Position numbers and translations under genes: made by a program. This document shows, piece after piece, positions 24,031-38,483 of a DNA stretch of 64,000 nt. The stretch's first letter is position 1. Every line of letters starts with the position of its first letter. The notes beneath the pieces were generated by a model, which worked only from the letters and a program-made list of their open reading frames with translations, was not told the DNA's origin and did no database searches. Origin of the DNA: Candidatus Binatia bacterium (GTDB lineage Bacteria > Desulfobacterota > Binatia > Bin18); contig OY761159.2 in assembly GCA_963664395.2 (NCBI GenBank), positions 4,096,001 to 4,160,000 on the forward strand. The letters run 5' to 3'.

Positions 24031-24740
24031 ACAAACAGTACGCCGGCCAGGGTTGCAACCGGAAGCTGGCGCGAGTGACTGGCATCATGCGCTGCGGGGA
24101 GGAGACTGCCGGCTCCCAGATAGAGAAAGACGCCGCCAAACCACGCGAGCAACAGGGCAAGCATCTCTGTTTGAAAGGTCACAAACGACTGGGCATAGAC
24201 TCCGGCAAGTGGTGCCAGGGCGGTGAGAACGAGCATGATTCTGGTGGCGCGGACTGTCTGCTGCGTACCGAGCATGACGCCGGCAACACTCGCCCCGTCG
24301 GCAATTTTGTGAAGTAGGATACCCAAGGCAATAGCCCAGCCCACATGCTCGCCCGCCTGAAAGCCCTTGCCTATGGCAAACCCATCAAAAAAACTATGCA
24401 CCAGAATACCTATTGCACCCCAGATACCGGCGTGTGGGGCATGGGCATGGTGCGCGGCTTGCTCGGCCGCTGTCTCTCGCTGGTGGGTTAAATGCTCGAC
24501 AAGATAGAAGCACAGAAAGCCTAAAGTACAGGATAACAAGACATGATGATGGTGGAAGGATGAGCCGGGCGTTGCGAGCAATTCAAGCGATTCTGGAATC
24601 ACCTCCATCAACGCAGCAGCAATCAGGGCGCCGGCGCAAAAGGCAAAAACCGGGCCCTGGTAGACCTGGAGGCGCAAAACGAGCAGCCCGCCACCAAGGG
24701 TCAGTACAAAAGTCGCACCAGCTACCCAGAATGCTGTCAT
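24000..24740 (-). CDS. ZIP-family divalent metal transporter
   Basis: HSFFDG, LHKIADG, His-rich loops, multiple TM segments. Confidence 0.88.
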   Translation of the reverse strand: MTAFWVAGATFVLTLGGGLLVLRLQVYQGPVFAFCAGALIAAALMEVIPESLELLATPGSSFHHHHVLLSCTLGFLCFYLVEHLTHQRETAAEQAAHHAHAPHAGIWGAIGILVHSFFDGFAIGKGFQAGEHVGWAIALGILLHKIADGASVAGVMLGTQQTVRATRIMLVLTALAPLAGVYAQSFVTFQTEMLALLLAWFGGVFLYLGAGSLLPAAHDASHSRQLPVATLAGVLFVYGAQLLTPH

Positions 24741-24807
24741 TGTAAAGCGCTCTCTACGGTAATTTCGGGGAATAAGATGAGCCGAGTCTTACTAAAGCGG
24801 TTTTCAG

Positions 24808-25665
24808 TTATCGAGGTCGAAAGGCGCGAAATACCCAGGCACAGGCTAATAGGAAAGAGAGACACGCCGCAGCCATTTGGCCCGGCGGGAAATCATAATG
24901 ATTAGCGATGACAAAAGCAAAGACGCTACTGCCTAATGAGACGCACGGAGCGAGGACAAACAAGCTCTGCGCGGTCCAGCCTACATTCTTGGCCACTAAA
25001 GCCGGAAGAACCAGACTCGCAAAAGCAAACACGACTCCGGAAACATGTATGGAAAACCCGACGGCCAGGCCGAGCCAAGTCGAGAGCAGGCCGTTCCAGA
25101 GCCCGGTTCTCAGACCGACCGCGCGGGCCATTACGGGATCGAGTGTGATCAGCAGGACGGGCCGGTAATACACAATGAGGGCGGAGACGGTCAACAGCGT
25201 CATGCCGGAAAAAACCCAGACATCTCCGACTCGTGCCCCAATGATCGTGCTGGACAACAGGCGGTTGACTTCGTCCATGCCGTGCGGGCTGTGGGCGAGC
25301 AGCAGAATGGAGGCGCTCACGGAGAACAGAAAGACCCAGCCGGTGATGGCCTCGTGCGTTTCCTGACCGGCCCGCCGTCCGCCGCCGGTTGTGAGAAAGG
25401 CGGCCAGCACGGCAAACAGTCCGCCCATGAAGGAGTGGACCAGATCGGAGTTCCACCAACTGAGGGAGTCCGTGCTGAGCAGGTTGCCAAACCAGATTCC
25501 CACTGCGATGCCCAACAGCGACGCTTGAGAAACGGCTGCGCCGATGAAGATCTGATCGCGGGCAACCACCAGTACGCCGATCAGCGAGAGCAGAATGCCA
25601 ATCAGCCAGCCGGACAGATAGGCGTTCTGGAAGAGCGGCCACGAACTCACGAAACTGTCGATCAT
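24808..25665 (-). CDS. Metal ABC transporter permease (ZnuB-like)
   Basis: G..VV.R...FIGAAVSQ..LLG, LDP..A.A.G, D.PPG motifs; hydrophobic. Confidence 0.88.
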   Translation of the reverse strand: MIDSFVSSWPLFQNAYLSGWLIGILLSLIGVLVVARDQIFIGAAVSQASLLGIAVGIWFGNLLSTDSLSWWNSDLVHSFMGGLFAVLAAFLTTGGGRRAGQETHEAITGWVFLFSVSASILLLAHSPHGMDEVNRLLSSTIIGARVGDVWVFSGMTLLTVSALIVYYRPVLLITLDPVMARAVGLRTGLWNGLLSTWLGLAVGFSIHVSGVVFAFASLVLPALVAKNVGWTAQSLFVLAPCVSLGSSVFAFVIANHYDFPPGQMAAACLSFLLACAWVFRAFRPR

Positions 25666-25673
25666 TATGGAGC

Positions 25674-26420
25674 CTAAGAATGCAGGTCGGACGAACCTTC
25701 TGGCGAGACGTGCAGATGAATACGCTGGCCGCGCCCATAGACGCGATCCAGGTTGGACTCGTTCAGTACCTCGGCTTTGGGGCCGGCAATAAGGGTCCCC
25801 TGCGCGACCAAGCCGATATGGGTGGCGTGGCGTTCGGCAATGCCAAGATTATGGGTGACGAATAGACAGGTGTTGTTCTCCTGGCGGTGAATGTCGGTCA
25901 AGGTTTGCAGGAAGTCATTTTCCGCAGTGAGGTCAAGGTTGTTCGTGGGCTCGTCCAGAATCAACAGGGCCGGGCGTCTCACTAGCGCTCGCGCAACCAG
26001 TGCGCGCTGGCGCTGGCCACCCGACAGTGTCCAGTAGTTTTGATGCTTGTGTTGGTCCAGATCGAGCATGCTCAGCGCCCGGTCCAGATACTCCCGTCGT
26101 GTGGCCCGGTTCAGGCCGGTGCCGACCAGACCCAGGCCGACGAATTCACGGACGGTAATCGGCAGTGTGGGATTGATGTCACAGCGCTGCGGCACGAATC
26201 CGACCCCGTTGGGTATATGCCGGTAGAGGCGACCCGTCTGCGGCTTGAGCAATCCGAGTAAGGTCTGGAGCAGGGTAGTCTTCCCAGCACCGTTCCGGCC
26301 CAGCACGAACCATAATTCGCCGGTGCGGATCGTCAGGTTTATGCGCCCGAGAACCGCAAAGTTTCCGTATCCGACCGACAGATTGGTCGTTTGCAGAACA
26401 ATATCAGTATCGCTGTCCAT
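25674..26420 (-). CDS. Metal ABC transporter ATP-binding protein (ZnuC-like)
   Basis: GRNGAGKT, GFVPQ, LSGGQRQR, LILDEP, VTHN. Confidence 0.92.
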   Translation of the reverse strand: MDSDTDIVLQTTNLSVGYGNFAVLGRINLTIRTGELWFVLGRNGAGKTTLLQTLLGLLKPQTGRLYRHIPNGVGFVPQRCDINPTLPITVREFVGLGLVGTGLNRATRREYLDRALSMLDLDQHKHQNYWTLSGGQRQRALVARALVRRPALLILDEPTNNLDLTAENDFLQTLTDIHRQENNTCLFVTHNLGIAERHATHIGLVAQGTLIAGPKAEVLNESNLDRVYGRGQRIHLHVSPEGSSDLHS

Positions 26421-26505: not shown

Positions 26506-27561
26506 CTAGCTCGAACCGCCGGCCAGGGCCGCCGCGATCTGCTTCACGTTGTAATCCACCATATCGAGATAGTGCGCCGTCCCAGGGCGAGCAGTGACTT
26601 GTTCGGCCATGTGTACAACCGTGGCGCTGGAATTCTCGGAAACGAACTGCGCATAACGGGGGTCGTAATAGGCAGTCGCCATAACGACCTTCACTCCGTT
26701 CGTCTTCATCAGCTCAACAAGCGTATTCAGATGTTTCGTGGTTGGGGGAATGCCCGGCATGGGTTCGAGATAGGCGATCAGGTCGAGTCCGAAGAGTTCA
26801 GAGAAGTAAACCCAGACATTGTGGTCGGCGACGAGCTTGCTGCCGACATAGGGCCGCAGGCGGCCGAGCCAGCCGCTTAACAGAGACTCCTGTCCCTGAC
26901 TCTTGAGAAAGCTGTCCAGCCGTCCATGCCGGGCCAGCACCGCCAGCTTCTCGAAGTCGTAGGCGTCGGCCAGCGCTTCGCCGACGAGGGCCACGCCCAA
27001 GCGGCGCCGGAAGTCGGCATAGCGCTCGGCGAAATACGGGGCGCTGGCAGGTCGGAGGGCGCTCAGCCGGTCCCGCAGCAGCCGTGCGACACGCAGGCCG
27101 TTCATGGGGTCCAGCAGATAATGCGGATTGCCGAGCGGATGTACATCCCCCATGGAGCGATCGACCGGCGCGCTGGGAATCTGAAGCGGAGCGATGGCCG
27201 CGGACGCATCGATATAGCCCTGGCTACCAGGGAGGATATTGCCGTTACGAGCATTTTGCAGCAGGGGCGGCGCCCACCCAACTTCCAGCTCCAAACCCAT
27301 CTGAACATACACATCACAGATGCTCAGGGCCTTGATGAAGCTCGGCTTGGGTACCACGAAGTGAGCGTTTTCCGTGCCTTTGGCAAAGACCGTCAGCGTG
27401 GTCTGCTCGCCGCCAATCTCCTGGACCAAGCTGCCGAGGTCGGGAACCGTGGCACAGGCTTTGAGTGACTGCGCCTGGGCGGCCGGAGTCGGCCCCGGCC
27501 CGACAATCAGGCTCGCTAGTGTGAGCGCAGAGATAAGAAAACGGATCATCAACATGAGCAT
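26506..27561 (-). CDS. Metal ABC transporter substrate-binding protein (ZnuA/TroA-like)
   Basis: Signal peptide; ENAHF, GLELEVGW, GDVHPLGNPHY.LDP, EP.PGIPP. Confidence 0.9.
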   Translation of the reverse strand: MLMLMIRFLISALTLASLIVGPGPTPAAQAQSLKACATVPDLGSLVQEIGGEQTTLTVFAKGTENAHFVVPKPSFIKALSICDVYVQMGLELEVGWAPPLLQNARNGNILPGSQGYIDASAAIAPLQIPSAPVDRSMGDVHPLGNPHYLLDPMNGLRVARLLRDRLSALRPASAPYFAERYADFRRRLGVALVGEALADAYDFEKLAVLARHGRLDSFLKSQGQESLLSGWLGRLRPYVGSKLVADHNVWVYFSELFGLDLIAYLEPMPGIPPTTKHLNTLVELMKTNGVKVVMATAYYDPRYAQFVSENSSATVVHMAEQVTARPGTAHYLDMVDYNVKQIAAALAGGSS

Positions 27562-27588: not shown

Positions 27589-29226
27589 CTAGAAATCGTG
27601 GGCCCGATGCGCACCGTACATCCATTCGAAGCCGAGCCAGACGGTCTGCGCGTCGTTCTTGAGGTGGCTGGCAGTATCGTAGTTGTACTGGAGCCGGATG
27701 CGTGAAAACTCGGACGGTCGCCAGACCAGCAAGGGAGAGAGACGGTGCCGGTCATCCCGGAACGGGTCGTTCTGGCGTCCGCCGATGCTGTGTCCGCTAC
27801 CGCCGGCGTACTCATAGCGCAGGCCGGCGGCCCAGTTGGTCTGAAACCCGTACAAAAGCTGGGTATACAGGCCCCAGTCCTTGAACGCGCGGCCCGGCAG
27901 GCTGTCGAGGTCGCCGTCGTCGGCTGCCTGGGTGTAGCGGGTTGCGTGATAGTCGCGTTTCATGACCTCGGTCTGCCAGGTCAGGAACGGAGAGCCGAAA
28001 TTGCCGCCCGGCTGCCAGCGCCACTTCATGTCCAGCCCGTACAGCCAGGTGTCGGCATCCCGCCCGGTTGCGTTCGGCCCGTACAGGCCGGACAGGCCGA
28101 ACACCGCGGTCACTTCGTCGGTGAATTCGAACGAGTTCTCCCAACGGGTCAGATAGACGAAATCTCCAAAGCCGCGCACGTCCTGAGCGACAATCGGGCG
28201 GCCGGCTATACCGTTGCCCTGGCTGCCTTCCGCGTGGTCATCTTCTTCCTCGGCGTGATTGTCTTCTCCCTCGGCATGATCGTCTTCCTCTTCGTCCATA
28301 TGCTCGTCGTGCTCGTCACCGTGGCTATGGGCCAATTCTCCGCCCAGAAAGCTGGCCATGGTCACGCCATTGGCATTCTGCATACCGAAGTGAAACTCGG
28401 AGAACCACGGCGTGGGCGGGAGCCACGAGGCCCGAAAACCGGCCTGCCGCATGCCGTCTCCGCCGAACATGCGGGAGTTGACAACCGGTTGATCGACCCA
28501 ATCCCAGGCGTGGGGGTGTTGCGGGTTGATCATCCCGAACTCGGTCAGAAAATGGCCAACCTCAAGCTGAAGACCGTAAGGCAGGGCCGACGAGGTGAGA
28601 AAGGCTTCTTCAAGTTCGACCGCAGTCTTGCCGGTGCTTGGATTGACCGCGGTGAGGACATGCGCCTCGCCGGTGAAGTAGGGGTCAATGGCACCGGCCA
28701 GAGAAATTTCGGCCTGACCCAAGGTGAAGCCACGTTGTTTCGGGTCGTGACCCCCGCCCTGCAGCGTCGAAATCGCGGCGTCCCGCTCGCTGGAGCCGCC
28801 GGCAAAGAACAGAACATCGGTCGAAATGTCAATGAGGCGTAACTGCGTGTTCCCGCCCAGCGGCTGTGACCACAGCGCCCGCCGGTCCGGCTCTGGCTCA
28901 AAATCCGGGACGCCGAGTTCGTCAAGCGCTTTGTCCAGGGGCGAGGCGACTCGGCCGGCCATGCTTTCAGCCTGGCGTCGCTGTATGGCCTGCACTTGCG
29001 CCTCTTGCTCCTCGACCTGTTGCTTGAGGGCTTGATCCCGTGAGTTCGACTCTTTTTGCATTTGTAAAAGGAGTCGCTGGAGTTGCTCGACAGTTTCCTG
29101 CAGGCGGTCAACCTGACTGCGGAGTGCTTGGACCTCATCCGAGTCGCTGGCCTGTGCGCTGGTGTCTGGCTGGGATAAAAAAATGGAGACGACCGAGATG
29201 AAAAAAATGCGGATTATGCCACGCAT
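27589..29226 (-). CDS. Putative zinc-regulated outer-membrane channel with N-terminal coiled coil and His/acidic loop
   Basis: Signal peptide, coiled coil, AE....AIDPYF, ELEEAF, N..HPHAW..VD.P, W.PSEFSRIRLQY, C-terminal GAHRAHDF; first gene of the metal-uptake operon. Confidence 0.75.
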   Translation of the reverse strand: MRGIIRIFFISVVSIFLSQPDTSAQASDSDEVQALRSQVDRLQETVEQLQRLLLQMQKESNSRDQALKQQVEEQEAQVQAIQRRQAESMAGRVASPLDKALDELGVPDFEPEPDRRALWSQPLGGNTQLRLIDISTDVLFFAGGSSERDAAISTLQGGGHDPKQRGFTLGQAEISLAGAIDPYFTGEAHVLTAVNPSTGKTAVELEEAFLTSSALPYGLQLEVGHFLTEFGMINPQHPHAWDWVDQPVVNSRMFGGDGMRQAGFRASWLPPTPWFSEFHFGMQNANGVTMASFLGGELAHSHGDEHDEHMDEEEDDHAEGEDNHAEEEDDHAEGSQGNGIAGRPIVAQDVRGFGDFVYLTRWENSFEFTDEVTAVFGLSGLYGPNATGRDADTWLYGLDMKWRWQPGGNFGSPFLTWQTEVMKRDYHATRYTQAADDGDLDSLPGRAFKDWGLYTQLLYGFQTNWAAGLRYEYAGGSGHSIGGRQNDPFRDDRHRLSPLLVWRPSEFSRIRLQYNYDTASHLKNDAQTVWLGFEWMYGAHRAHDF

Positions 29227-29239
29227 ATGATTTCCTCTG

Positions 29240-29256
29240 TTGCATAGTAGTTGTAA
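29240..29256. promoter_or_regulatory. Candidate Zur/Fur operator
   Basis: Imperfect palindrome TTGCATAGTAGTTGTAA just upstream of the OM-protein start and divergent from the Fur-family gene. Confidence 0.5.
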
Positions 29257-29383
29257 TAGAAACATAATTGGATAAAGGTGCGGGGTTGTCAAGCCGACAC
29301 CCTTCCGGTGTCCGTTGTAGGAATGGACGTGAGGTACTTTTTTCTTGCCGGAAGTCATAGAAATCGGTAAGATGGGCAGCGCT

Positions 29384-29830
29384 ATGAAAAAGGAAAGAAC
29401 CGTTCGGTCAATAGCAGAGCTACGCACCCTGATTCGATCTACTGGGCTGCGTAGCACAGGTCCCCGGGTTGCTGTTTTGCAGCGGCTTCAGCAGGCGACG
29501 ACTCCTATGAGCCATGCGGAGACCGCCGAAGCTCTGGAGCCGGCGGGCTTGGACCGGGCGACGCTCTATCGGAATCTCATTGACCTCACCGACACCGGTC
29601 TCTTGTCGCGAACGGATCACGGCGATCACGTCTGGCGTTTTGAACTGCGTGACACTGCGCACGGCCAGATCGAAAAACATCCCCATTTTACCTGTATTGA
29701 CTGTGGCGAGGTCGAGTGTCTGCCCGATACGAGCATCGAGGTATCCGCACCGCGCCGCTCGCCCCGCGCGATCAAAAAACACCATTTCGAAGTACAGCTC
29801 ACCGGCCTGTGCGACCGCTGCGCGGCCTAG
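29384..29830 (+). CDS. Fur-family transcriptional regulator (probable Zur)
   Basis: GLRST.PR.AVL, RATLYRNL, HPHF.CIDC, GLCDRC; divergent from metal-uptake operon. Confidence 0.9.
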   Translation: MKKERTVRSIAELRTLIRSTGLRSTGPRVAVLQRLQQATTPMSHAETAEALEPAGLDRATLYRNLIDLTDTGLLSRTDHGDHVWRFELRDTAHGQIEKHPHFTCIDCGEVECLPDTSIEVSAPRRSPRAIKKHHFEVQLTGLCDRCAA

Positions 29831-29945: not shown

Positions 29946-31559
29946 CTATACGCCGTGCCGGTCGCGAAGAATGGTCGCGGCCTGTGTGATGGCTGTCAGT
30001 TTTTGTTCGGCAAGCGTAGCTGACGCGATCGGATTATCTGCAAACGTGGCAAAACCGCAGTCCGGCGTCAGGAGTAGACGCTCGGCTCCAAAGAGAGTGA
30101 CCGCTTTTTCCGCTTTAGCGACAATCTGCTCGACCGTCTCAAGGCTTTGCGTCTTTTGATTCACCACCCCAATGCCGATGCGCCGGTCGTCCGGCAGGCC
30201 GCGCAGCACGGCCTCATCGCCAGCCCGAGGCGTGCAGAGTTCCAGCAGGAGCGTACCAACCTTGACGTTTTTCAAGAGAGGCAGCAGCGGCCGGTAGTCG
30301 CCGGCCAGGGCCACGCTTTCATCCGGGGTCCAGTTGCCGCGACAGATGTGCAGCGCCAGCCGTTCTTGCGGCAAGTCGGCGACCACCTGATTAATGAGCG
30401 ATTCGGCAAAGACCAATTCCTCCGCGGCCTCACGCTTCTCTCCCAGCGCGCCACACATAAACGTGCGATTATTTGATGTACCGCTAAAGACGACCTCGGT
30501 CAGGACCGGCTCGTCCAATTGAACCAGCGAGACACCCGCGGCGAGCAGGGAGTAGAGTTCCTCGCGTAGGACCCGAACGACATCCGTGGCGAGTTCTTCC
30601 CGCGTGTCATAGGCCCGGTCGGAGATGCATTCCATCCACATCGTGCGGGTGAGGAGATAGGGGCCGGGCAGGGCGACCTTGAGTGGCCGGTCGGTCAGGC
30701 TGGCAAGAAAAGTTGCCTCGTGAACGGCCAGCGAGCGGCTGCGACCCAGCGGGCCAAACACCGCCGGATGGCGGATTTTGCCGGCCGGGACATCGAGTGC
30801 ACGCAGCTCACGCTCGAATTCTTCGGGGTCATCGACATACGGCAGCAGGTCGGTAATCGGAATCAACTGGCAGTTGTCGAGCAGCCCGCCCACGAAGCTG
30901 GCGTAATTGTCCCGACGCTGCTCACCGTCTGTGAGTACGTCTACCCCGGCCCGTTGTTGGGCGGCGACCGCCAGCCGCACGGCGTCGTCCGCGGTTTGGC
31001 CAAACTCTTCATCTGACATGCGGCCTTCGAGATGATCGTTGAGGGCGCGTAACAGCCAGGGTGGCCGCGGCCAACTCCCGACGCCCATGACAGACAGGGG
31101 GGCAATGGTCGGGGCCGGGGCCGGCTGCGGAAGGCGGTCGGGAATCACGACTTCGGCGATGGGTTGGGTAATCGGTGCGTATTCCTTTTCGTGCGTTGAG
31201 CCATTGCGTGCTGAACGTTGTTTCGCCTTCTTCTTTTTCAACTTTGGCTGAACGGGTGGCTCCGGTTCCACGGAGCGCAGGTTCGCTGCCGGGCCTTTCG
31301 AGACCAGAAAACTGTTCTGCTTGCCCTGGCTGATGTGGGATACCAAGTCGTTTCCGGTCAGCCGACACCAGGCCGGTAGGTCTTCGACGACCGACGTTTC
31401 GGTGGACAGGATTTCGAGCAGTTGGCCTGGAGCAAGGGGGTCGATATGCTTGCGGATCAGTAATAACAGGCCATTGCCACAGTCGAGGTCCCCGCCGTCG
31501 AAACTGTCTATCGGTTGGTATGGGTGCGTCTGCGTATCGGCAGCCATGCTTTTCCCCAT
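29946..31559 (-). CDS. Fusion: TusA/SirA-like sulfur-carrier domain + core cobalamin-independent methionine synthase (Meth_synt_2) domain
   Basis: N-term FDGGDLDCG..LL..IRK....L.PGQ.LEI.S.....EDLPAWCRLTGN; C-term VGSWPRP, TDGEQRR, QLDEP, HICRGN, PDCGF; start may be 31547. Confidence 0.85.
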   Translation of the reverse strand: MGKSMAADTQTHPYQPIDSFDGGDLDCGNGLLLLIRKHIDPLAPGQLLEILSTETSVVEDLPAWCRLTGNDLVSHISQGKQNSFLVSKGPAANLRSVEPEPPVQPKLKKKKAKQRSARNGSTHEKEYAPITQPIAEVVIPDRLPQPAPAPTIAPLSVMGVGSWPRPPWLLRALNDHLEGRMSDEEFGQTADDAVRLAVAAQQRAGVDVLTDGEQRRDNYASFVGGLLDNCQLIPITDLLPYVDDPEEFERELRALDVPAGKIRHPAVFGPLGRSRSLAVHEATFLASLTDRPLKVALPGPYLLTRTMWMECISDRAYDTREELATDVVRVLREELYSLLAAGVSLVQLDEPVLTEVVFSGTSNNRTFMCGALGEKREAAEELVFAESLINQVVADLPQERLALHICRGNWTPDESVALAGDYRPLLPLLKNVKVGTLLLELCTPRAGDEAVLRGLPDDRRIGIGVVNQKTQSLETVEQIVAKAEKAVTLFGAERLLLTPDCGFATFADNPIASATLAEQKLTAITQAATILRDRHGV

Positions 31560-31568
31560 GCTCCGTTT

Positions 31569-31601
31569 CCCTCTCCCTCTGGGAGAGGGCCAGGGTGAGG
31601 G
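31569..31601. repeat. REP-like palindrome, copy 3 (between dsrE and tusA-metE)
   Basis: ccctctccctctgggagagggccagggtgaggg. Confidence 0.75.
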
Positions 31602-31628
31602 TCTTTCTTAATGGAGTGAGAGTCTTCC

Positions 31629-31991
31629 CTAATACGACACGCTCGGCGTCCCGCCGGCCAGAAATTCGACCAGTTTGGCGCCGCCAACAATCTTGGCCCC
31701 CGGAACAAGGTTGTTCTCATCCAGACCGCGTTTCTTAAAGCACGGCGAGCACACATATATCGTACCGTCGGCTTCGGCAAAATTGGTCATCAGTTCTTTG
31801 AGCGGCGCAAAGCCGTCCTCATGCATATCGTCGGCATAGCCGCCAACGGCCAAACGCACGCCCTCGGTGCTCAAGAAGACCAGGGTTTCCTGGTCCGAGC
31901 CCAGCGCGGCGTTGGCAATCACAAAGGCGACGGTTGCCTTGTCGGTATTATCCTTTGCGTGGGTCAGTGAGACGCAGAATTGTCCTGCCAT
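31629..31991 (-). CDS. DsrE/DsrF-family sulfur-relay protein
   Basis: 120 aa; A.VAF.IANAA, VFL..EGV.L, IYVCSPC.KKRGL, GA..LVEF; AGGAGG RBS. Confidence 0.85.
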   Translation of the reverse strand: MAGQFCVSLTHAKDNTDKATVAFVIANAALGSDQETLVFLSTEGVRLAVGGYADDMHEDGFAPLKELMTNFAEADGTIYVCSPCFKKRGLDENNLVPGAKIVGGAKLVEFLAGGTPSVSY

Positions 31992-32188
31992 AGTGGGTCC
32001 TCCTTTGCGGTCCTTCTTGAGTCGAGTGTGTATCATACCCAGCCACGCTGACCGAGACAAGAACGCTCGACCGAGCAGAGGAGAGTCCCCTCCCAAGAGA
32101 GAACAGGGACAAGAGGGGCCCATGTTATAGCCCTATCCGCCGGAATCGGCTAAGAGTGTGGGAGCCACGAAAGGAAGAGGAGAATCGT

Positions 32189-33484
32189 ATGGGCGCAGAC
32201 GATACCAACGAACGCAAATACGGCTTTAATACGCGTCAGTTGCACGCGGGACAAATCCCCGACCCAACGACGGGCAGCCGAGCCGTTCCGATTTACCACA
32301 CCACGAGTTATCAGTTTAAGAATACCGAGCACGCGGCCAACCTGTTCGCGCTGAGCGAACCCGGCAATATCTACACGCGCATCATGAACCCGACCAATGA
32401 TGTGCTGGAGCAACGGGTCGCCGCCCTAGAGGGCGGGGTGGGGGGGCTGGCGGCCAGCAGCGGCCACGCGGCGCAGATGATGGCCATCATGGCGCTGTGT
32501 GGCCAGGGTGACCATATTGTGACCAGCAGCCGGCTGTATGGCGGCACGTTTAATCAGTTCGCGCATACCTTCCCGCGCATGGGCATTAGCTCGACCTTTG
32601 TAGACCCGACCAAGCCGGAAGAATTTGAAAAGGCCATCCAGCCCAATACCAAAATTATCTATGGCGAGACCTTGGGCAACCCGGATATTACGGTTTTCCC
32701 CTTTGAGGAAGTGTCGGCCATTTCCGAGGCGCATCATATCCCGGTGATGATCGACAACACGTTTGCCACGCCGTATCTGTGTCGGCCGTTTGAGTGGGGC
32801 GTACATATTGTCACCCACAGCACGACCAAGTTTCTGAGCGGCCACGGCACGGCCATCGGCGGCATGATCGTGGATGGCGGCAATTTTGACTGGACCAGCG
32901 GCCGCTTTCCGAACTTTACCGAGCCGGACCCGTCGTATCACGGCCTGGTATACGCCGACCTCGGGGCGCCGGCCATGATACTCAAATCGCGCGTGCAAAT
33001 CCTGCGCGACGTGGGCGGCTGCCAGGCCCCGTTTGACAGTTTTACGACCCTGCTCGGGGTTGAGACGCTGAGCCTGCGCATGGAACGTCACGTCGCAAAC
33101 GCCCAGCAGGTCGCCGAGTTTCTGGAGAGCCATGCCGGTGTGCATGCCGTGGCTTTCCCCGGACTGGCCAACAGCCCGGACCATGAAAAGGCCAAGAAAT
33201 ACTTACCGCTCGGACCCGGCTCGATCATGGGCTTTCAGATCAAGGGTGGCCGGGCCGCGGGTGAGAAATTCATTAACAGCCTCAAGCTGCACAGCCATGT
33301 GGCCAATGTCGGAGATGCCAAGAGTCTGGCGATTCACCCGGCCAGTACGACTCACAGTCAGCTCAATGAAGACGAGTTGATCAGTGCTGGTGCAACGGTG
33401 GACTTTGTCCGGCTGAGTGTTGGCTTGGAAGATATTGACGACATTATCTGGGACCTGGATCAAGCCTTGTACGCCGCCAAGTAG
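32189..33484 (+). CDS. metY: O-acetylhomoserine aminocarboxypropyltransferase (sulfhydrylase)
   Basis: LHAGQ.PDPTTGSRAVPIY.TTSY, GNIYTRIMNPT, HSTTKF..GHG, HVANVGDAKSL.IHPASTTH.QL. Confidence 0.96.
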   Translation: MGADDTNERKYGFNTRQLHAGQIPDPTTGSRAVPIYHTTSYQFKNTEHAANLFALSEPGNIYTRIMNPTNDVLEQRVAALEGGVGGLAASSGHAAQMMAIMALCGQGDHIVTSSRLYGGTFNQFAHTFPRMGISSTFVDPTKPEEFEKAIQPNTKIIYGETLGNPDITVFPFEEVSAISEAHHIPVMIDNTFATPYLCRPFEWGVHIVTHSTTKFLSGHGTAIGGMIVDGGNFDWTSGRFPNFTEPDPSYHGLVYADLGAPAMILKSRVQILRDVGGCQAPFDSFTTLLGVETLSLRMERHVANAQQVAEFLESHAGVHAVAFPGLANSPDHEKAKKYLPLGPGSIMGFQIKGGRAAGEKFINSLKLHSHVANVGDAKSLAIHPASTTHSQLNEDELISAGATVDFVRLSVGLEDIDDIIWDLDQALYAAK

Positions 33485-33519
33485 GCCAGGGTCGGTTTTG
33501 AGGAGTGACGGGATAGACC

Positions 33520-34734
33520 ATGAGCACGAATGGCTCAGTCGGACTCGTTCAGCCGCAGCGGTTGACTTTCGCTGAGGACGAGCCCTTTCAGTTGGACAGT
33601 GGGGCCACCCTTGGTCCGGTGACCTTGGTGTATGAAACCTACGGCCAACTCAACGCCGACCGGACCAATGCCATCCTGATTACGCACGCCCTGAGCGGCA
33701 GCGCGCATGCGGCCGGCTACCATCAGCCGGACGAGGCCAAAGCCGGCTGGTGGGACGACTGTATTGGACCGGGCAAAGCGTTTGACACCAATAAATTCTT
33801 TATCATTTGCAGTAATGTCCTGGGCGGCTGCTACGGCTCGACCGGACCGTCAGACCCCGACCCGGCGACCGCCAAACCGTACGGCATGCGTTTCCCGGTC
33901 GTGACCATTGGGGACATGGTGCGCGCCCAGGTCCGGCTGATCAATTACCTGGGCATAGACACCCTGCTGTGTGTGGCCGGCGGCTCCATGGGGGGTATGC
34001 AGGCGCTTGAGTGGGCGGTGCATCATCCGCACCGGCTGAAAGCCGCCATTCCTATTGCGACCACGGCCCATCATAGCCCGATGCTGATTGCCCTGAGTGA
34101 GGTGGGGCGGCAGGCGATTTATGCCGACCCGGCCTGGAATAATGGGGACTATTATGACGCGGAACTCAAACCCGATGCCGGTTTGGCGGTCGCCCGCATG
34201 GTGGGTCATATTACCTATCTGAGCGAAGAGTCCATGCAGCAGAAGTTCGGTCGGCGGCTCCAGGACCAGGTGCGGTATGGCTATGAGTTTCGTTCCGAGT
34301 TTCAGGTCGAGAGCTACCTCAAATACAAAGGCCACAACTTTACGCGCCGGTTTGATGCCAACAGCTATCTGTATGTGACCAAGGCGATGGACTATTTTGA
34401 CCTGAGTGCACAGACCGGCTCGGTGGCGGCCGCCTTTGCCAACTCGGCCGACCTGCGTTACCTCGTGCTGAGCTTTACCAGCGATTGGCTCTACCCGAGC
34501 TATCACAGCAAAGAGTTGGTCAGTGCGCTGACCGCGGCCGGCGCAGACGTGACCTATCTGGATGTCAAAAGCTCGTGGGGTCATGATGCGTTTCTGCTTG
34601 AGGTTGAAACCATGACCAAGTTGCTCAGCGGTTTTCTTGAGCGCCTGGTTCAATCGGAACGGGTGGCCTTCCCGTCCATTTTCCCGCCACCCGCCTCACC
34701 CAAGGAGCAGCCAAAGACCGAGGCCGCAGCATGA
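33520..34734 (+). CDS. metX: Homoserine O-acetyltransferase
   Basis: YETYG.LN, HALSG, IGPGK.FDT, GGSMGGMQ, DWLYP, GHDAFL. Confidence 0.96.
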   Translation: MSTNGSVGLVQPQRLTFAEDEPFQLDSGATLGPVTLVYETYGQLNADRTNAILITHALSGSAHAAGYHQPDEAKAGWWDDCIGPGKAFDTNKFFIICSNVLGGCYGSTGPSDPDPATAKPYGMRFPVVTIGDMVRAQVRLINYLGIDTLLCVAGGSMGGMQALEWAVHHPHRLKAAIPIATTAHHSPMLIALSEVGRQAIYADPAWNNGDYYDAELKPDAGLAVARMVGHITYLSEESMQQKFGRRLQDQVRYGYEFRSEFQVESYLKYKGHNFTRRFDANSYLYVTKAMDYFDLSAQTGSVAAAFANSADLRYLVLSFTSDWLYPSYHSKELVSALTAAGADVTYLDVKSSWGHDAFLLEVETMTKLLSGFLERLVQSERVAFPSIFPPPASPKEQPKTEAAA

Positions 34735-35378
34735 GTGGGGCGGCTGAACAGTTTGCGCCTCCGGTACTATCGAGCGGCAGTCCGGTCCTGCTTCGGTCGG
34801 ATTTGCTCGCCATTGCCGACATGGTTCCGGCCGGGTCGCGGGTTTTGGACCTGGGCTGTGGTGACGGCGCCCTGCTCGAATATCTGGTGCGCAGCAAGCA
34901 GGTGATGGGCCGGGGCGTGGAACGCAGCGAAGACGGGATGCTGGCCTGTGTCCGGCGTGGGCTGAGTGTTCGCCAGGGCAATCTGGAAGAGGGCTTGGCC
35001 GATTACCCGGATGCGAGTTTTGACTCGGTGATTTTGAGTCAGACATTGCCCTTTTTGAACGATCCGGCCATGATCCTGAGCGAGATGCTCCGGGTTGGCA
35101 GCCATGCAATTGTCAGCTTTCCGAACTGGGGCTTTTGGCGCTGTCGGCTCGAAATGCTCTTTGCCGGTCGCATTCCACAGGTGTTTGATCTGGCCGAACG
35201 CTGGCACGAAGCGCCGCGCTGGCAGGCGTTTACGGTGGCTGACTTTGGCGATTTTTGTCACCATTTGGGCTTCGGCATACTGGAAGAGATCTATTTATCC
35301 CGGAGTCGGCGTTTGAAGAGTCTGCGCTATAAAAACCTACGCGCCACCACCGCCGTCTTCGCGTTGCAGCGCTTGTAA
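34731..35378 (+). CDS. metW: Methionine biosynthesis protein MetW
   Basis: R.DL..IA..V..GSRVLDLGCGDG, FD.VILSQTL, IVSFPN.G.WR.R; ATGA overlap with metX. Confidence 0.92.
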   Translation: MSGAAEQFAPPVLSSGSPVLLRSDLLAIADMVPAGSRVLDLGCGDGALLEYLVRSKQVMGRGVERSEDGMLACVRRGLSVRQGNLEEGLADYPDASFDSVILSQTLPFLNDPAMILSEMLRVGSHAIVSFPNWGFWRCRLEMLFAGRIPQVFDLAERWHEAPRWQAFTVADFGDFCHHLGFGILEEIYLSRSRRLKSLRYKNLRATTAVFALQRL

Positions 35379-35405: not shown

Positions 35406-36215
35406 ATGGCCGACACTCGCTCATCTCCCCCTGTTCTCCAACACAAAGCCTACGACCGGCCATCGCAGTTTGTCCCGGAAAATCTGTTGCGCGAAGCGCG
35501 GCGTCAAATGGGCTTGCCAGAAGGCCAGGTGCCGAGCATCTGCGTGCTTGACCCGGACGGGGATATTGTCGCCAGCCTGCTGGACCGGGGTGAAGCGCAC
35601 GAACACGACACCTGGGCCTGTTACCATACGACCTTACACCGGTTCACGCTCAACGGGATCGAGATCGGCATTATCCGTCATGTAGTGGGTGCGCCGTTTG
35701 CCGTTTTGGTCGCTGAGGAATTATTTGCCTCCGGCTGTCAGTTGCTCATTCACGTCACCTCCTCCGGGCAGATTGTCCAAAAAGAAACCCCGCCGTTTTT
35801 TATCCTGGTCGAAAAAGCCCTGCGCGACGAAGGCACGAGCTATCACTACCTGCCGCCGTCTGATTTCTCGTTCTTGAAGCCGGACCTGTTGGAACTGTTT
35901 ACCCGCGCCCTCTCAGATGGAGATCCACCGGTCTATCGTGGAGCCACCTGGACAACCGACGCCCCGTTTCGAGAAACGCGAGAGGCGATTCAGCACGCCG
36001 AACAGCGCGGGATTCTTGCTGTTGAAATGGAAGCTGCCGCCCTGTACGCCTTCGCCCAGGCACGAGGCAAGGCGGTCGTGTGCTTTGCTCATGTCACCAA
36101 TCAGATGGGCCGGGTCGAGGGCGATTTTGAAAAAGGCGAAGGAGCCGGCAGTCGCGACGCCCTGCGGCTAATTGTGGCAGCGGCTCAGGCGTGGCTGGCG
36201 GCTCAGAAGGTGTAA
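35406..36215 (+). CDS. Nucleoside phosphorylase family (PNP/UDP) protein
   Basis: ALRDEGTSYHY, WTTDAPFRET, AVEMEAAA. Confidence 0.88.
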   Translation: MADTRSSPPVLQHKAYDRPSQFVPENLLREARRQMGLPEGQVPSICVLDPDGDIVASLLDRGEAHEHDTWACYHTTLHRFTLNGIEIGIIRHVVGAPFAVLVAEELFASGCQLLIHVTSSGQIVQKETPPFFILVEKALRDEGTSYHYLPPSDFSFLKPDLLELFTRALSDGDPPVYRGATWTTDAPFRETREAIQHAEQRGILAVEMEAAALYAFAQARGKAVVCFAHVTNQMGRVEGDFEKGEGAGSRDALRLIVAAAQAWLAAQKV

Positions 36216-36308: not shown

Positions 36309-36587
36309 ATGCGTATCCTGCCGTTAGCTGAAGTCAAAACAAAGCTGAGCCAGTTGGTGGCTGACGTGGCGGCGACTGACGAAGAGGTCACGATTACCAA
36401 AAATGGCCATGCCACTGCCGTCCTTGTGAGCTATGGAGAGTTTGAGAGCTGGCAAGAGACCCTTGCCGTCCTGTCGGACCAAGCGCTAGTCAAAGAGATC
36501 CACACGGGAATACAACAGCTTCAACAGGAACGTGGCAAGCTGCTGACAGATACAGATCTCGATCATCTCTTTTCTGATGAAGCCTAG
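36309..36587 (+). CDS. Phd/YefM-family antitoxin
   Basis: LAEVKTKLSQLV..V......V.ITKNG...AVLVS..EFESWQETL.VLSD. Confidence 0.92.
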   Translation: MRILPLAEVKTKLSQLVADVAATDEEVTITKNGHATAVLVSYGEFESWQETLAVLSDQALVKEIHTGIQQLQQERGKLLTDTDLDHLFSDEA

Positions 36588-36695
36588 CGTGCGCCGGGTC
36601 CGACTCCCACGCGAAGTTCAAGCGGCTGTCCGCACCATGCATCCGGCACTCAAGCAACGTATTCGGGCAGCTTTAGATACACTTCGGGAGGAGAT
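36577..36695 (+). pseudogene. Truncated RelE/ParE-family toxin
   Basis: Overlaps the antitoxin end; RVRLPREVQAAVRTMHPALKQRIRAALDTLREE resembles a RelE N-terminus, then runs into the antisense 3' end of the methyltransferase with no LRSxRVG.xRIIY half. Confidence 0.65.
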
Positions 36696-38303
36696 TCACT
36701 TCTTGAACAGTCCCCCCTGTTGCCCGGTCTCTCGTTTATGCTTGGGCGCTTTTTTGAACGTGACATTGCCGTGCTGGGTTGGCCGATTGACGCCTTTTCC
36801 GAGCAGCAAGTCCGTTACCGTAAAGAGTTGAATATGCGGGTGGCGCGTTCCCCACGGAGACTCATAAAAGCCCGCGCCCATCGCTTCCGTCCGCATGGGC
36901 TTTGTTGGTTCCTGAAGTGACAGCAGGACTCCGATTTCCGCATTCTCCCTCTCGATGACTCCGCGCAAATCTCGCACATGAGGAACGGAAGTCCGCCCAG
37001 CCTTGACCGAAAAGATGATTTGCTTGGTTTTCGCGCCGGCAGCGTCATCATGGAAATAGAGCCGTCCGTCTATGCCTTGATCCGCTCCTTTCTTCTGCTC
37101 AACAGGGCGGGCGCCAACTAACCCCAAGGCCCACCACTGGAATTGAAAGGGATCATCTTTCCCCAATACTTCCGCGTCCGGGAGGGACACCGGTTCACCG
37201 ACCACTTCATAGCTTTGGGTGATTTCATCGCCAAACGTGTCTCGCAAGCGATGCTTGATAAGACCAATAGCGAGATGGGTGATATCAATACCGATCCAGG
37301 ACCGTTGTAATTTCTGGGCGGCGGCAATGGCCGTCCCACAGCCACAAAAGGGGTCTAAAACAATGTCGCCTTCATTGCTGCTGGCTTTGATAATCCGTTC
37401 CAGCAGCGCTTCGGGCTTCTGGGTCGGGTAGCCTAAGCGTTCTTTAGCTTGGGAATTTATAGGGTCAATATCATCCCAAAGAGCCTGAACTGGCCGACCT
37501 TTCATTTCGTCCCAATATCTTTTGCGTCTAATACCTCCGCTCTTGGTGAAATGCAGTCGCCCCTCGGCGTCCAATCGCTGCATCGTTGTAAGGGGAACGC
37601 GCCACAGGGACCGAGCCCCTTTGTATTCGTACTCATATCCGCCGCCGGACAAGCCTTTTGCTGTGAGATTATCATCAGTCCAGGCTCGCCCATCAGAGTC
37701 GGTGAGCCGGAAACGAGCCTTGTATGCGTCGCTGTAGGATTGGTACTGAGGGGTCCAGGTCCAGTGATCACTTTTAGTGTAGAACAGGATGATGTCGGTG
37801 TTCGCGCCATAGCGGTTTGAGTCGCTGTGGGCGGTGGTCCGTCGCCACGTTATCTCATTGCGGAAATTCGTCAGTCCAAAAATCGCATCCAATAGTAGCT
37901 TGAGATAATGCGAAGCGGTTGGGTCACAGTGGAGGTACAGGCTGCCGGTAGGCTTCAGCGCTCGCCGGAGTTCCACCAAGCGCGGTGCCATCATGGCGAG
38001 ATAGGCCAGCATATCGTTATCGCCAAGAAAGCCGCGAAACGATTGCAGCACCTGCGATACCTGCCCACCGGTCTCAACCACTTCTTGATAGGCTTGTGCC
38101 GATGCTTCGTCCCATTGCCACATGTCGCCGAATGCCTTGATCTGAGCGGCTGCCCGTGATCCGTCCTGTTCGGCAAACAGGACGTTGTAGTCCTGGTCAC
38201 TCTTGAAGGGCGGATCGAGGTACACCAAGTCTATTGACTCGTCTTGGATATAGCGCCGTAAGACATCCAGGTTGTCGCCATAGTAGAGTTTGTTTTTGAC
38301 CAT
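36696..38303 (-). CDS. Beta-class N4/N6 DNA methyltransferase with C-terminal Mrr-like nuclease-fold domain
   Basis: LYYGDNL, YLDPPF, LHCD, GYPTQKPEALL.RII, DPFCGCGT; C-term GADQGIDG...IIFSVKAG...DLRGVIERE. Confidence 0.9.
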   Translation of the reverse strand: MVKNKLYYGDNLDVLRRYIQDESIDLVYLDPPFKSDQDYNVLFAEQDGSRAAAQIKAFGDMWQWDEASAQAYQEVVETGGQVSQVLQSFRGFLGDNDMLAYLAMMAPRLVELRRALKPTGSLYLHCDPTASHYLKLLLDAIFGLTNFRNEITWRRTTAHSDSNRYGANTDIILFYTKSDHWTWTPQYQSYSDAYKARFRLTDSDGRAWTDDNLTAKGLSGGGYEYEYKGARSLWRVPLTTMQRLDAEGRLHFTKSGGIRRKRYWDEMKGRPVQALWDDIDPINSQAKERLGYPTQKPEALLERIIKASSNEGDIVLDPFCGCGTAIAAAQKLQRSWIGIDITHLAIGLIKHRLRDTFGDEITQSYEVVGEPVSLPDAEVLGKDDPFQFQWWALGLVGARPVEQKKGADQGIDGRLYFHDDAAGAKTKQIIFSVKAGRTSVPHVRDLRGVIERENAEIGVLLSLQEPTKPMRTEAMGAGFYESPWGTRHPHIQLFTVTDLLLGKGVNRPTQHGNVTFKKAPKHKRETGQQGGLFKK

Positions 38304-38483
38304 CCCGCTCTCCTTAAAGAGTAAGGTATCTGATTGGGGTTTGTGTGTCTCGCTGGTGTCGCAAATCACTCCGATTTGATACATAGGGCAAGCAGAGTAT
38401 CAAAGTGTCATATGGCAGTATTCAGAGGGATTTATCGGGCACGTAGGGGTGGTCAAAAACGTGTAAAAGCCTGGGCCAATACT

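Follow-up and report, generated by a model that had tools for sequence, protein, structure and literature searches.

A TusA-core MetE fusion protein and its DsrE-like partner: a possible cysteine relay to a homocysteine-binding zinc site

The window analysed here, a stretch of 64,000 nucleotides from the genome of a Candidatus Binatia bacterium, includes a dsrE-like gene and a gene that joins a TusA-like domain to a core MetE barrel, both divergent from metY-metX-metW. A sequence-only reading of this DNA had drawn attention to the arrangement, and the open reading frames and motifs that it claimed were all found where it had placed them. The features are as follows.

29946..31559, (-) strand: TusA::core-MetE fusion gene, 537 aa plus stop (open reading frame; Pfam TusA and Meth_synt_2)
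31272..31511, (-) strand: TusA-like domain, residues 17-96 (Pfam and NCBIfam PRK00299 alignments)
31110..31271, (-) strand: Pro/Lys-rich linker, residues 97-150 (low pLDDT, poor conservation)
29949..31109, (-) strand: single MetE-type (beta-alpha)8 barrel, residues 151-537 (alignment to 3RPD)
31629..31994, (-) strand: DsrE-like protein, 121 aa, with a VCSPC (CxxC) active-site motif (Pfam DsrE, 3MC3 match)
32032..32060, (-) strand: promoter-like site TTGTCT-17-TATGAT of the dsrE-fusion operon (pattern scan)
31995..32188, no strand: divergent intergenic region common to dsrE and metY (open reading frame starts)
32189..33484, (+) strand: metY, O-acetylhomoserine sulfhydrylase (TIGR01326, 647.5 bits against a cut-off of 495)
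33520..34734, (+) strand: metX, homoserine O-acetyltransferase (NF001209, 526 bits against 331)
34731..35378, (+) strand: metW (TIGR02081, 213 bits against 189.5)

The dsrE gene does adjoin the fusion gene, as had been proposed, but it does not start at 32123. Its start and that of metY were set by an alignment of 17 sequences with a conserved ribosome-binding site and -10 element, which places the dsrE ATG at 31994 (MAGQFC, 121 aa). The metY start is most likely 32189, with 32156 as an alternative open reading frame start. Because of these two starts, the intergenic region common to the dsrE-fusion and metYXW units, itself part of the original proposal, measures about 194 bp. Its TATGAT box is kept in 17/17 aligned Binatia intergenic regions, and no Rfam riboswitch was found within it.

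The N-terminal domain of the fusion had been called TusA-like, and Pfam agrees (PF01206, E 7.7e-8, 32.5 bits against a cut-off of 28.6); two solved TusA-fold structures, 1DCJ and 3LVJ, match the N-terminus at E 5.5e-4. In an AF2 model of the whole fusion (pLDDT 84.7, pTM 0.75), residues 18-96 are predicted to adopt the strands and helices of the two-layer alpha/beta TusA fold, with block-mean pLDDT of 80-96 over residues 11-90. Alignment of residues 21-89 with positions 13-80 of the PRK00299 profile puts Cys27 (DLDCG motif; codon 31479-31481) at profile position 19, in a CGNG rather than a CPxP motif. In E. coli TusA, the persulfide cysteine is Cys19. Conservation of the TusA cysteine had been named beforehand as a test of the proposal: Cys27 is present in 121/121 and 75/76 rows of two alignments, and a second cysteine of the domain, Cys65, in 118/121 and 75/76. 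The linker that follows is Pro/Lys-rich, as described earlier; it is poorly conserved among homologues and falls below pLDDT 50 at residues 99-121, which we read as disordered.

The remainder of the protein is a MetE-type barrel, matched by Meth_synt_2 at residues 155-528 (Pfam, E 2.9e-27, above the cut-off). The folate-binding half of MetE was correctly reported to be missing, since Meth_synt_1 (PF08267) reaches 19.5 bits against 27 with no accepted stretch. The best solved match to the barrel is the MesD structure 3RPD (E 8.8e-27; Foldseek TMt 0.81). All four zinc ligands are kept, His404 and Cys406 (HICRGN), Glu440 (LELCTPR) and Cys501 (PDCG), as are, by residue-by-residue alignment to 3RPD and MetE, the homocysteine-binding residues Ser162, Glu213 and Asp349. 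Ligands and triad alike are invariant in 121/121 and 76/76 rows of the fusion family. An intact homocysteine triad points to an amino acid as substrate, as against the CoM site of epoxyalkane:coenzyme M transferase.

The barrel also carries extra near-invariant cysteines, namely Cys230, Cys311 (MWMEC) and Cys369 (RTFMCG), and LELCTPR holds Cys442 beside Glu440. Cys369 (codon 30453-30455) is present in 121/121 and 76/76 fusion rows and in 74/74 rows of an unfused sister family described below. The AF2 model predicts it at the tip of a beta-hairpin, residues 365-374, and the insertion that bears it is missing from six other aligned Meth_synt_2 paralogues of the same genome.

Assignment of the partner to the DsrE family rests on Pfam PF02635 (E 4.4e-15, 56.3 bits against 22.7). 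Its IYVCSPC aligns with MYVCVQS of 3MC3 at the active-site cysteine, and both CxxC cysteines are kept in 68/68 DsrE homologues. The gene is upstream of the fusion on the same strand in 69/80 loci, with a gap of at most 150 nt in 57 of these 69. An additional stand-alone TusA-like gene is found upstream of dsrE in 38 loci, and in 9 further loci this TusA-like gene is joined to a Cys-rich domain. Genes resembling dsrF/H or tusC/B/E were not found in the window region or in five diverse annotated loci, and none of the dsr, hdr, sox or tRNA-thiolation genes was found near the module in the window or the annotated loci. In one Massilia locus another DsrE-like gene follows downstream.

Across 80 genome loci in at least five phyla the fusion is conserved at 61-92% identity, and its intact recurrence in 76 of the 78 evaluable loci far exceeds what chance could produce. 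Its distribution is that of a rare, accessory module, with 7/301, 1/201 and 1/201 genomes in three samples; harmless cultured carriers include Massilia, Duganella, Rohdeia and Saltatorellus. The suggested linkage to sulfur and methionine genes survives in part. It holds across phyla for dsrE, but linkage to met genes does not extend beyond Binatia, where a divergent metY-metX-metW lies beside the module in 16/22 loci as against 0/58 in other phyla. Outside Binatia the flanking genes differ from locus to locus and show no relation to each other; the module is thus self-contained. Ten Burkholderiales loci include a PhnC/D/E-type ABC importer within the operon. A literature search found no paper on a TusA::core-MetE plus DsrE module.

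The unfused sister family, from soil metagenomes and one genome (G179), has a barrel about 45% identical to that of the fusion. Zinc and homocysteine residues are present in 72-74 of its 74 rows, together with the Cys369 insertion but without the TusA domain, Cys230 or Cys311. OsmC-like and rhodanese genes lie downstream of the sister core in 63/63 loci with enough downstream sequence, the rhodanese genes in tandem and the OsmC-like partner a small, two-cysteine protein. A 1-Cys peroxiredoxin is encoded beside the sister family in 16/34 loci, and an OsmC-like protein in 33 of those 34. The sister family thus resembles the fusion in that its core MetE is accompanied by a sulfurtransferase and by a small protein with two cysteines, although its partners are rhodanese, OsmC-like and often 1-Cys peroxiredoxin proteins in place of TusA and DsrE. 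A quick tree groups the fusion and sister families in a single clade, separate from MetE and from MesD-like proteins (SH-aLRT 99).

The sequence-only reading had staked its proposal on the protein not belonging to an already characterised family, and both this separate clade and NCBIfam equivalog scores far under their cut-offs place it outside. The fusion scores 69.4 bits against 929.95 (TIGR01371) and 75.5 against 541 (PRK05222) for MetE; 158.7 against 406 (PRK04326), 79.4 against 258 (PRK00957) and 35.2 against 399 (PRK01207) for other methionine synthases; and 117.6 against 392 for the MesD-like PRK09121, which two paralogues from the same genome pass at 403 and 395. On these NCBIfam scores the fusion is probably separate from MesA, MesB and MesC as well. 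With MetE the fusion has in common the C-terminal catalytic barrel, the His-x-Cys/Glu/Cys zinc site and the homocysteine pocket, but where MetE has an N-terminal Meth_synt_1 barrel that helps bind methyltetrahydrofolate, the fusion has its TusA-like domain. The context of MesA, MesB and MesC is a corrinoid-protein methyl donor (Wood-Ljungdahl or methanogen), whereas the fusion occurs in aerobes, and the loci examined offer no context of that kind.

MesD likewise has a single MetE-type barrel without the folate half, the same zinc ligands and Ser/Glu/Asp amino-acid contacts, aerobic hosts and dependence on a dedicated partner gene. Identity to the fusion is 24-25% for 3RPD in the Foldseek structural alignment and about 30% for the same-genome MesD-like paralogues, which fall in a separate clade. 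The fusion reads HICRGNW where 3RPD and the same-genome PRK09121 paralogues read HICYGYG, and MesD is without the TusA domain, the Cys369 insertion and the DsrE partner. Price et al. (2021, PMC7857596) report that MesD works with MesX (DUF1852) and give its methyl donor and the role of the partner as gaps in the field; the MesD-specific insertion that they describe includes a conserved Tyr226 (3RPD numbering), which is Asn in the fusion. MesX (DUF1852, PF08908) had no match in this 96%-complete genome, a weak result given that the control search also matched 0/14 genomes. The TusA-DsrE relays of sulfur oxidisers and tRNA thiolation (DsrEFH/TusBCD, DsrE3) likewise pair a TusA-fold cysteine at the helix 1 N-cap with a DsrE-fold protein that has a cysteine where the family has its active site; they differ in having CPxP in TusA where CGNG or CGEL is found here, and the present module adds an extra DsrE cysteine (CxxC) and a MetE-type end point.

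The sequence-only reading had suggested that the pair might handle a carrier-bound (methyl)thiol, provide MetY with sulfur or protect the zinc site. We infer, with a probability of about 0.4, that dsrE and the fusion constitute a self-contained cysteine relay ending at a homocysteine-binding zinc site. This reading is supported by the retention of the zinc and homocysteine residues, Cys27, Cys369 and the DsrE CxxC pair and by the upstream position of dsrE, and also by the OsmC-like/rhodanese pair of the sister family, the extra TusA genes and the adjacency to metYXW in Binatia. Sulfane sulfur, or perhaps selenium, would be loaded on DsrE or a free TusA-like protein and would travel by way of TusA Cys27 to Cys369, next to the zinc, where it would react with a four-carbon amino acid occupying the homocysteine pocket. 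The TusA domain would fill the place taken by the methyl-donor protein in other core synthases. In the favoured sub-mechanism homocysteine would be formed from the persulfide, the acceptor being either aspartate semialdehyde or an activated homoserine, namely O-acetylhomoserine supplied by the adjacent MetX; Cys311, Cys230 or the CxxC pair of DsrE would then resolve the enzyme-homocysteine disulfide, and the homocysteine product would feed MetH. The module would then be a PLP-independent homocysteine (or selenohomocysteine) synthase, making a C-S (or C-Se) bond at a MetE-type zinc from a protein persulfide passed from DsrE through TusA to Cys369, not from free sulfide, with the sister family doing likewise through rhodanese and OsmC-like proteins. 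So specific a proposal is tentative, and on the unlikely side. Methanogens have a persulfide-dependent homocysteine synthesis that uses a COG1900 protein and a ferredoxin-like partner. Any likeness to that route is functional and speculative only, consisting of a protein persulfide as the source of homocysteine sulfur if the favoured sub-mechanism holds, whereas folds are unrelated, hosts are anaerobic and the partner is an iron-sulfur protein.

The methionine genes of carriers bear on the relay in both directions. MetH was found in 6/6 carrier genomes tested, so a step upstream of methylation would fit. A check of this genome for metH, metE and metF found MetH and MetF as well as the two MesD-like paralogues, so the fusion is not its sole methionine route. 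On the other hand, MetY in the window and 3-4 PLP enzymes of the MetY/MetB family in each of the five other carrier genomes tested mean that a further route to homocysteine is not needed, and since full-length MetE is missing from 4/6 carriers tested, a B12-independent methionine synthase would suit equally. Two further points count against the relay: no precedent is known for a protein persulfide that acts at the zinc of a MetE-type enzyme, and the characterised enzymes with this zinc site and triad are, to our knowledge, all methionine synthases, a point in favour of plain methylation.

The module may accordingly be a fifth folate- and cobalamin-independent core methionine synthase beside MesA-D, donor unspecified, whose cysteine proteins would keep the zinc thiolate reduced or loaded in aerobes or would activate the enzyme; this is possible, if on balance doubtful. 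Its zinc ligands and triad are intact, MesD 3RPD is the closest solved structure, the module adjoins metYXW in Binatia, and a B12-independent back-up would be useful to the four of six carriers that have MetH without full-length MetE. MesD too needs a dedicated partner and oxygen (Price et al. 2021, PMC7857596). The peroxiredoxin (16/34) and OsmC-like (33/34; 63/63) neighbours of the sister family lend the redox-guard part an oxidative-stress flavour. TusA, DsrE and rhodanese are, however, known as sulfur carriers and not as reductants, and a maintenance factor would hardly be expected as a fusion with an invariant cysteine in 76/78 loci. Moreover, no conserved methyl-donor gene (corrinoid protein, MesX or methyltransferase) was found beside the module in the loci surveyed, nor was a SAM or B12 riboswitch in the window region and 8 diverse loci.

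Selenium could also be the cargo, held between cysteines of the carriers; the barrel would then form or convert selenohomocysteine or selenomethionine, or pass selenium on towards SelD. There is some indication of this in selD, above cut-off in 19/21 carrier genomes from six phyla, including 2/2 in an actinobacterial order with a background of 50/201, but the background is about 75% in the other two of three clades (227/301 Burkholderiales, 146/201 Acidimicrobiia), and the 6/8 Burkholderiales carriers with selD equal it. The gene was not found in two carriers (G317 and G351) and never adjoins the module in the genomes seen. The importer binding protein of the 10 Burkholderiales loci weakly matches a 'putative selenate' binding-protein family (66.5 bits against 250), and the only NCBIfam match of the OsmC-like partner is 'OsmC-related (seleno)protein' (40.6 against 95); both, however, are far below cut-off. 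The fusion showed no TGA in frame; two in-frame stops did occur, but each is a TAG and neither falls at a Cys position. A role in selenium metabolism is therefore improbable. Even less probable is a sulfane-sulfur buffer or detoxifier with no biosynthetic role, interconverting zinc-bound homocysteine thiolate and homocysteine persulfide in reactive-sulfur homeostasis. The same carrier proteins and conserved cysteines, the peroxidase-type neighbours of the sister family and the rare, accessory occurrence of the module would all suit it, yet homocysteine is a scarce metabolite and an odd choice of buffer, and no conserved persulfide dioxygenase or sulfide:quinone reductase gene lies beside the module.

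The fusion and sister families make up a second, larger clade of single-barrel core MetE enzymes whose partners are all cysteine-based sulfur carriers, and these partners offer a concrete, testable handle on the core MetE problem. If the relay delivers sulfur, a sulfur amino acid would be made in a new way, with the TusA/DsrE system and the MetE fold each put to a new use; were the homocysteine synthase reading true, sulfur would have a new entry into methionine biosynthesis in aerobic bacteria. If instead the enzyme methylates homocysteine, it would be a fifth folate-independent methionine synthase family, with a built-in redox guard. Either outcome would improve predictions of methionine and B12 auxotrophy in soil and freshwater bacteria and would correct the automatic name '5-methyltetrahydropteroyltriglutamate--homocysteine methyltransferase', which is carried by 29 of the best 120 relatives (86 are unnamed and 5 have other names).

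The fusion, with its TusA-like domain and single MetE-type barrel, and an unfused sister family of core MetE relatives make up a clade of single-barrel enzymes that is distinct, under strong constraint and tied to cysteine-based sulfur carriers: TusA with DsrE for the fusion, rhodanese with OsmC for the sister family. Open reading frame and family scans bore out the anatomy proposed in the sequence-only reading, in which a MetE barrel has lost its folate-binding half and is joined to a TusA-like domain, with a DsrE gene upstream and metY-metX-metW divergent from both:

29946-31559, minus strand: fusion gene, 537 aa (ORF listing and family scans)
N-terminus of the fusion, minus strand: TusA-like domain (PF01206, E 7.7e-8, 32.5 bits against 28.6)
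Fusion residues 155-528, minus strand: Meth_synt_2 barrel (E 2.9e-27)
Directly upstream of the fusion, minus strand: DsrE-family gene (E 4.4e-15)
Divergent from dsrE and the fusion, plus strand: metY, metX, metW and a PNP_UDP_1-family phosphorylase (metY: TIGR01326, 647 bits)

Meth_synt_1, the folate-binding half, is absent from the fusion (19.5 bits against 27, with no accepted stretch in the Pfam scan).

The closest solved protein to the fusion is 3RPD (HMMER E 8.8e-27; Foldseek TMt 0.81 at 25% identity), which Price et al. 2021 (PMC7857596) describe as the aerobic core methionine synthase MesD with bound selenomethionine. By the HMMER alignment to 3RPD and the residue list of that paper (PMC7857596), the homocysteine contacts Ser22, Glu73 and Asp188 of 3RPD correspond to Ser162, Glu213 and Asp349 of the fusion, and the zinc ligands of the fusion barrel are His404, Cys406, Glu440 and Cys501. 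All of these residues are invariant in the query and its 120 best relatives and in 76 genome copies, the invariance of Glu440 among the relatives being read from a 61-row alignment. Unlike MesD, the fusion has Asn in place of the MesD-specific Tyr226, and all NCBIfam methionine-synthase models score far under their cut-offs, the best being PRK04326 (158.7 against 406) and PRK09121 (117.6 against 392). The conserved zinc and homocysteine residues, taken together with these low scores, argue that the substrate is a homocysteine-like amino acid held at a zinc-thiolate site, and that the fusion belongs neither to MetE proper nor to MesD.

The sister family came to light in a genome of the same class (G179), whose unfused relative (44-45% identical) has an OsmC-like gene and a tandem rhodanese behind it. 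A metagenome scan gave 122 such relatives, and the analysis continued with the best 80. Every locus with 700 nt or more of downstream sequence (63 loci) had the OsmC-like gene as well as the rhodanese. Neither DsrE nor TusA turned up in any of the best 80 of the 122, and 16 of the 34 loci that reach 6 kb have a 1-Cys peroxiredoxin upstream. Of 74 near-full-length sister copies, 72-74 retain the zinc and homocysteine residues and all 74 the equivalent of fusion Cys369; Cys230 and Cys311 are not retained. A quick maximum-likelihood tree of 33 rows (14 of 77 fusion barrels, 12 of 75 sister cores, 6 paralogues from the window's genome and 1 MetE C-terminal half), from which MesA-C were left out and in which outgroup branches are long, unites the fusion and sister families (SH-aLRT 99), apart from MesD-like paralogues and MetE. 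Both this separate clade and the sub-threshold NCBIfam scores suggest that the protein lies outside the families already characterised.

Conserved cysteines of the fusion, counted in the query and its 120 best relatives and in the genome copies
Cys27 (TusA): 121/121; 75/76
Cys65: 118/121; 75/76
Cys230: 120/121; 76/76
Cys311: 121/121; 76/76
Cys369: 121/121; 76/76
Cys442: 116/121; 69/76

The conserved Cys27 is the residue that had been assigned to the persulfide position of the TusA domain from sequence inspection. It aligns with the persulfide cysteine of E. coli TusA, residue 19 (PRK00299 alignment), within a CGNG rather than a CPxP motif. In an AlphaFold2 model of the fusion (pLDDT 84.7, pTM 0.75) the TusA domain is folded and joined to the barrel by a tether that is disordered over residues 99-121. 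Residues 365-374 of the model form a beta-hairpin with Cys369 at its tip; the hairpin is an insertion, missing in six other Meth_synt_2 paralogues aligned from the window's genome, and its cysteine is specific to the clade. A selenocysteine variant of a key cysteine was rejected: the two in-frame stops found are both TAG, at Asp318 (locus L037) and Glu350 (locus L093), and they lie off the cysteine positions, which makes damaged copies or sequence errors the likely explanation.

The 120 best relatives listed by a word-index search are 65-98% identical over 92-100% of the query, and 98 of them bear a precomputed TusA label. Scanning a single genome for each species yielded 285 relatives, and the best 80 loci (61-92% identity) fall by record title into five groups: Binatia (22, one titled Thermodesulfobacteriota), Actinomycetota (13), Planctomycetota (17), Burkholderiales with other beta/gamma-proteobacteria (25), and others (3, including Acidoferrum and Obscuribacterales). 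Loci 88-92% identical to the window fusion mark the organism of the window as a Binatia bacterium. TusA and barrel share one open frame in 76 of the 80, the remainder being two loci cut by contig ends and two with an in-frame TAG. A sole longer fusion, a 993-aa protein joined to an ABC ATPase, was discarded as uninformative, since two genes were probably merged in the call. Random samples show the module to be rare, with 7 positives among 301 Burkholderiales and 1 among 201 genomes in each of an actinobacterial order and Acidimicrobiia, these single positives being the centre genome itself; a survey of the phylum of the window's genome was uninformative because the same class made up only 5 of the 200 genomes sampled.

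A DsrE homologue (66-98% identical) lies upstream of the fusion on the same strand in 69 of the 80 loci, no more than 150 nt away in 57 of the 69, and 8 of the 11 loci that lack it have less than 1.2 kb of upstream sequence. The VCsPC motif of these homologues is intact in 68 of 68. Ten Burkholderiales loci carry a PhnD/PhnE/PhnC-type ABC importer between dsrE and the fusion. In 38 loci dsrE is preceded by a free TusA-like gene (WDAGxMGCGEL...LPAWCRxTGH), and 9 further loci have a TusA-like gene with a Cys-rich N-domain; the homologue of the free gene in the window's genome is the C-terminus of a 361-aa ORF 124 kb past the window end, among unrelated neighbours. The linkage to methionine genes drawn in the sequence-only reading holds within Binatia, where 16 of 22 loci have metY-metX-metW, and fails elsewhere (0 of 58); among the annotated loci outside Binatia, the fusion flanks are mutually unrelated and contain no met genes. 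Two loci have additions peculiar to their lineage directly behind the fusion: Massilia carries another DsrE-like gene there (L079:9524-9859), and a Mycobacteriales MAG an acyl-CoA thioesterase (L081:10101-10910).

The window's genome encodes a full-length MetH (1203 aa) and MetF, and no MetE N-domain was found in it. MetH appears twice with nearly identical scores (contigs C1:2123704-2127102 and C7:13365-16763), the C7 copy probably being an assembly duplicate or contamination (estimated at 5.4% for the genome). About nine Meth_synt_2 paralogues are present in this 5-Mb genome; six of them were examined, and four of these could be assigned to no NCBIfam family. Two paralogues pass the PRK09121 cut-off and keep the MesD tyrosine (C1:4175366-4176346, about 15 kb past the window end, and C1:1807387-1808367), and one PRK09121-passing paralogue lies 2 kb downstream of metF (MTHFR). 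MesX (DUF1852), the MesD partner, had no match in the window's genome, weak evidence given that the control search matched nowhere either. It may be that MesD works here without MesX, or that the metF-linked core enzyme uses a folate donor.

Of the genomes tested that carry the fusion, all 6 encode MetH and 2 of the 6 a full-length MetE, while PLP enzymes of the MetY/MetB family occur in 5 of 5, ruling out the module as sole methionine or sole homocysteine synthase in these genomes. The sulfur carriers may bring sulfane sulfur, or selenium, to the zinc site. In the favoured version, homocysteine would be formed in a persulfide-dependent manner and would then feed MetH. Such a route would need a two-electron resolving step, for which the CxxC protein and the OsmC-like protein are candidates. 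Under the main rival, the module would be a genuine methionine synthase that draws on an unknown methyl donor and comes with a redox guard. Our confidence in either is limited, with a slight preference for persulfide-dependent homocysteine formation. As precedents, methanogens make homocysteine persulfide-dependently, E. coli MetE is inactivated by oxidation, and DsrE3/TusA carry thiosulfate. The fold and the carriers are of known kinds, and it is their combination and function that are without description in the literature: no paper was found that deals with either a fusion of TusA to MetE or the sister module with OsmC and rhodanese, and TusA, DsrE and sulfurtransferases go unmentioned in the main text of Price et al. 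2021 (PMC7857596).

A selenium link of the module is possible, judging from gene content. The selD gene scores over cut-off in 19 of 21 genomes carrying the fusion, including 6 of 8 Burkholderiales (background 227/301), 3 of 3 Acidimicrobiia (146/201) and 2 of 2 in the order of genome G507 (50/201), counts in which kin are not independent and which include unpublished genomes (G509 and G710-G712).

The divergent intergenic region was aligned between the window and 16 related loci (17 sequences). DsrE starts at the ATG at 31994 (121 aa, beginning MAGQFC, with the RBS AAAGGAG), and MetY probably starts at 32189. A promoter-like site, TTGTCT-17-TATGAT at 32060-32032 on the minus strand, coincides with the best conserved block. 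A shared operator was rejected, as conservation across the deeper Binatia branches is confined to promoter and RBS elements, and so was riboswitch control, there being no Rfam match in window positions 20000-45000 (E up to 0.1) or in 8 diverse loci (gathering score). Some Binatia have GC-rich, repeat-like insertions of about 85-215 nt between dsrE and metY (loci L022 and L017/L021/L024/L031). Within the 69-nt dsrE-fusion spacer (31560-31628), immediately ahead of the fusion start codon, lies a perfect 9-bp inverted repeat (CCCTCTCCC aga GGGAGAGGG), which could be either a small repeat element or a stem-loop acting on translation.

Three genes come next downstream of the fusion, encoding a Fur-family regulator (29345-29830, plus strand), a 622-aa protein in which one stretch is rich in His, Asp and Glu (27589-29457, minus strand) and a ZnuA-type zinc-binding protein (26506-27561, minus strand). 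In 11-12 related Binatia loci the Fur and ZnuA genes keep to a distance of about 0.1-8 kb from the fusion, and they may represent a zinc-uptake regulon beside a zinc enzyme. On the other side, the PNP_UDP_1-family phosphorylase (35406-36215, plus strand) directly follows metW, as in 13 Binatia loci; it scores far below all NCBIfam cut-offs and is possibly a salvage enzyme of the methylthioadenosine or S-adenosylhomocysteine nucleosidase type. Beyond it is a small antitoxin-like ORF pair (36309-36831), the end of which is overlapped by a 562-aa ORF (36696-38384, minus strand); a comparable 503-aa ORF at locus L095 has an N6_N4_Mtase (DNA-methylase) domain. AT skew is unusually high, relative to the rest of the window, in two 2-kb bins, 24001-26000 (0.229) and 48001-50000 (0.190).
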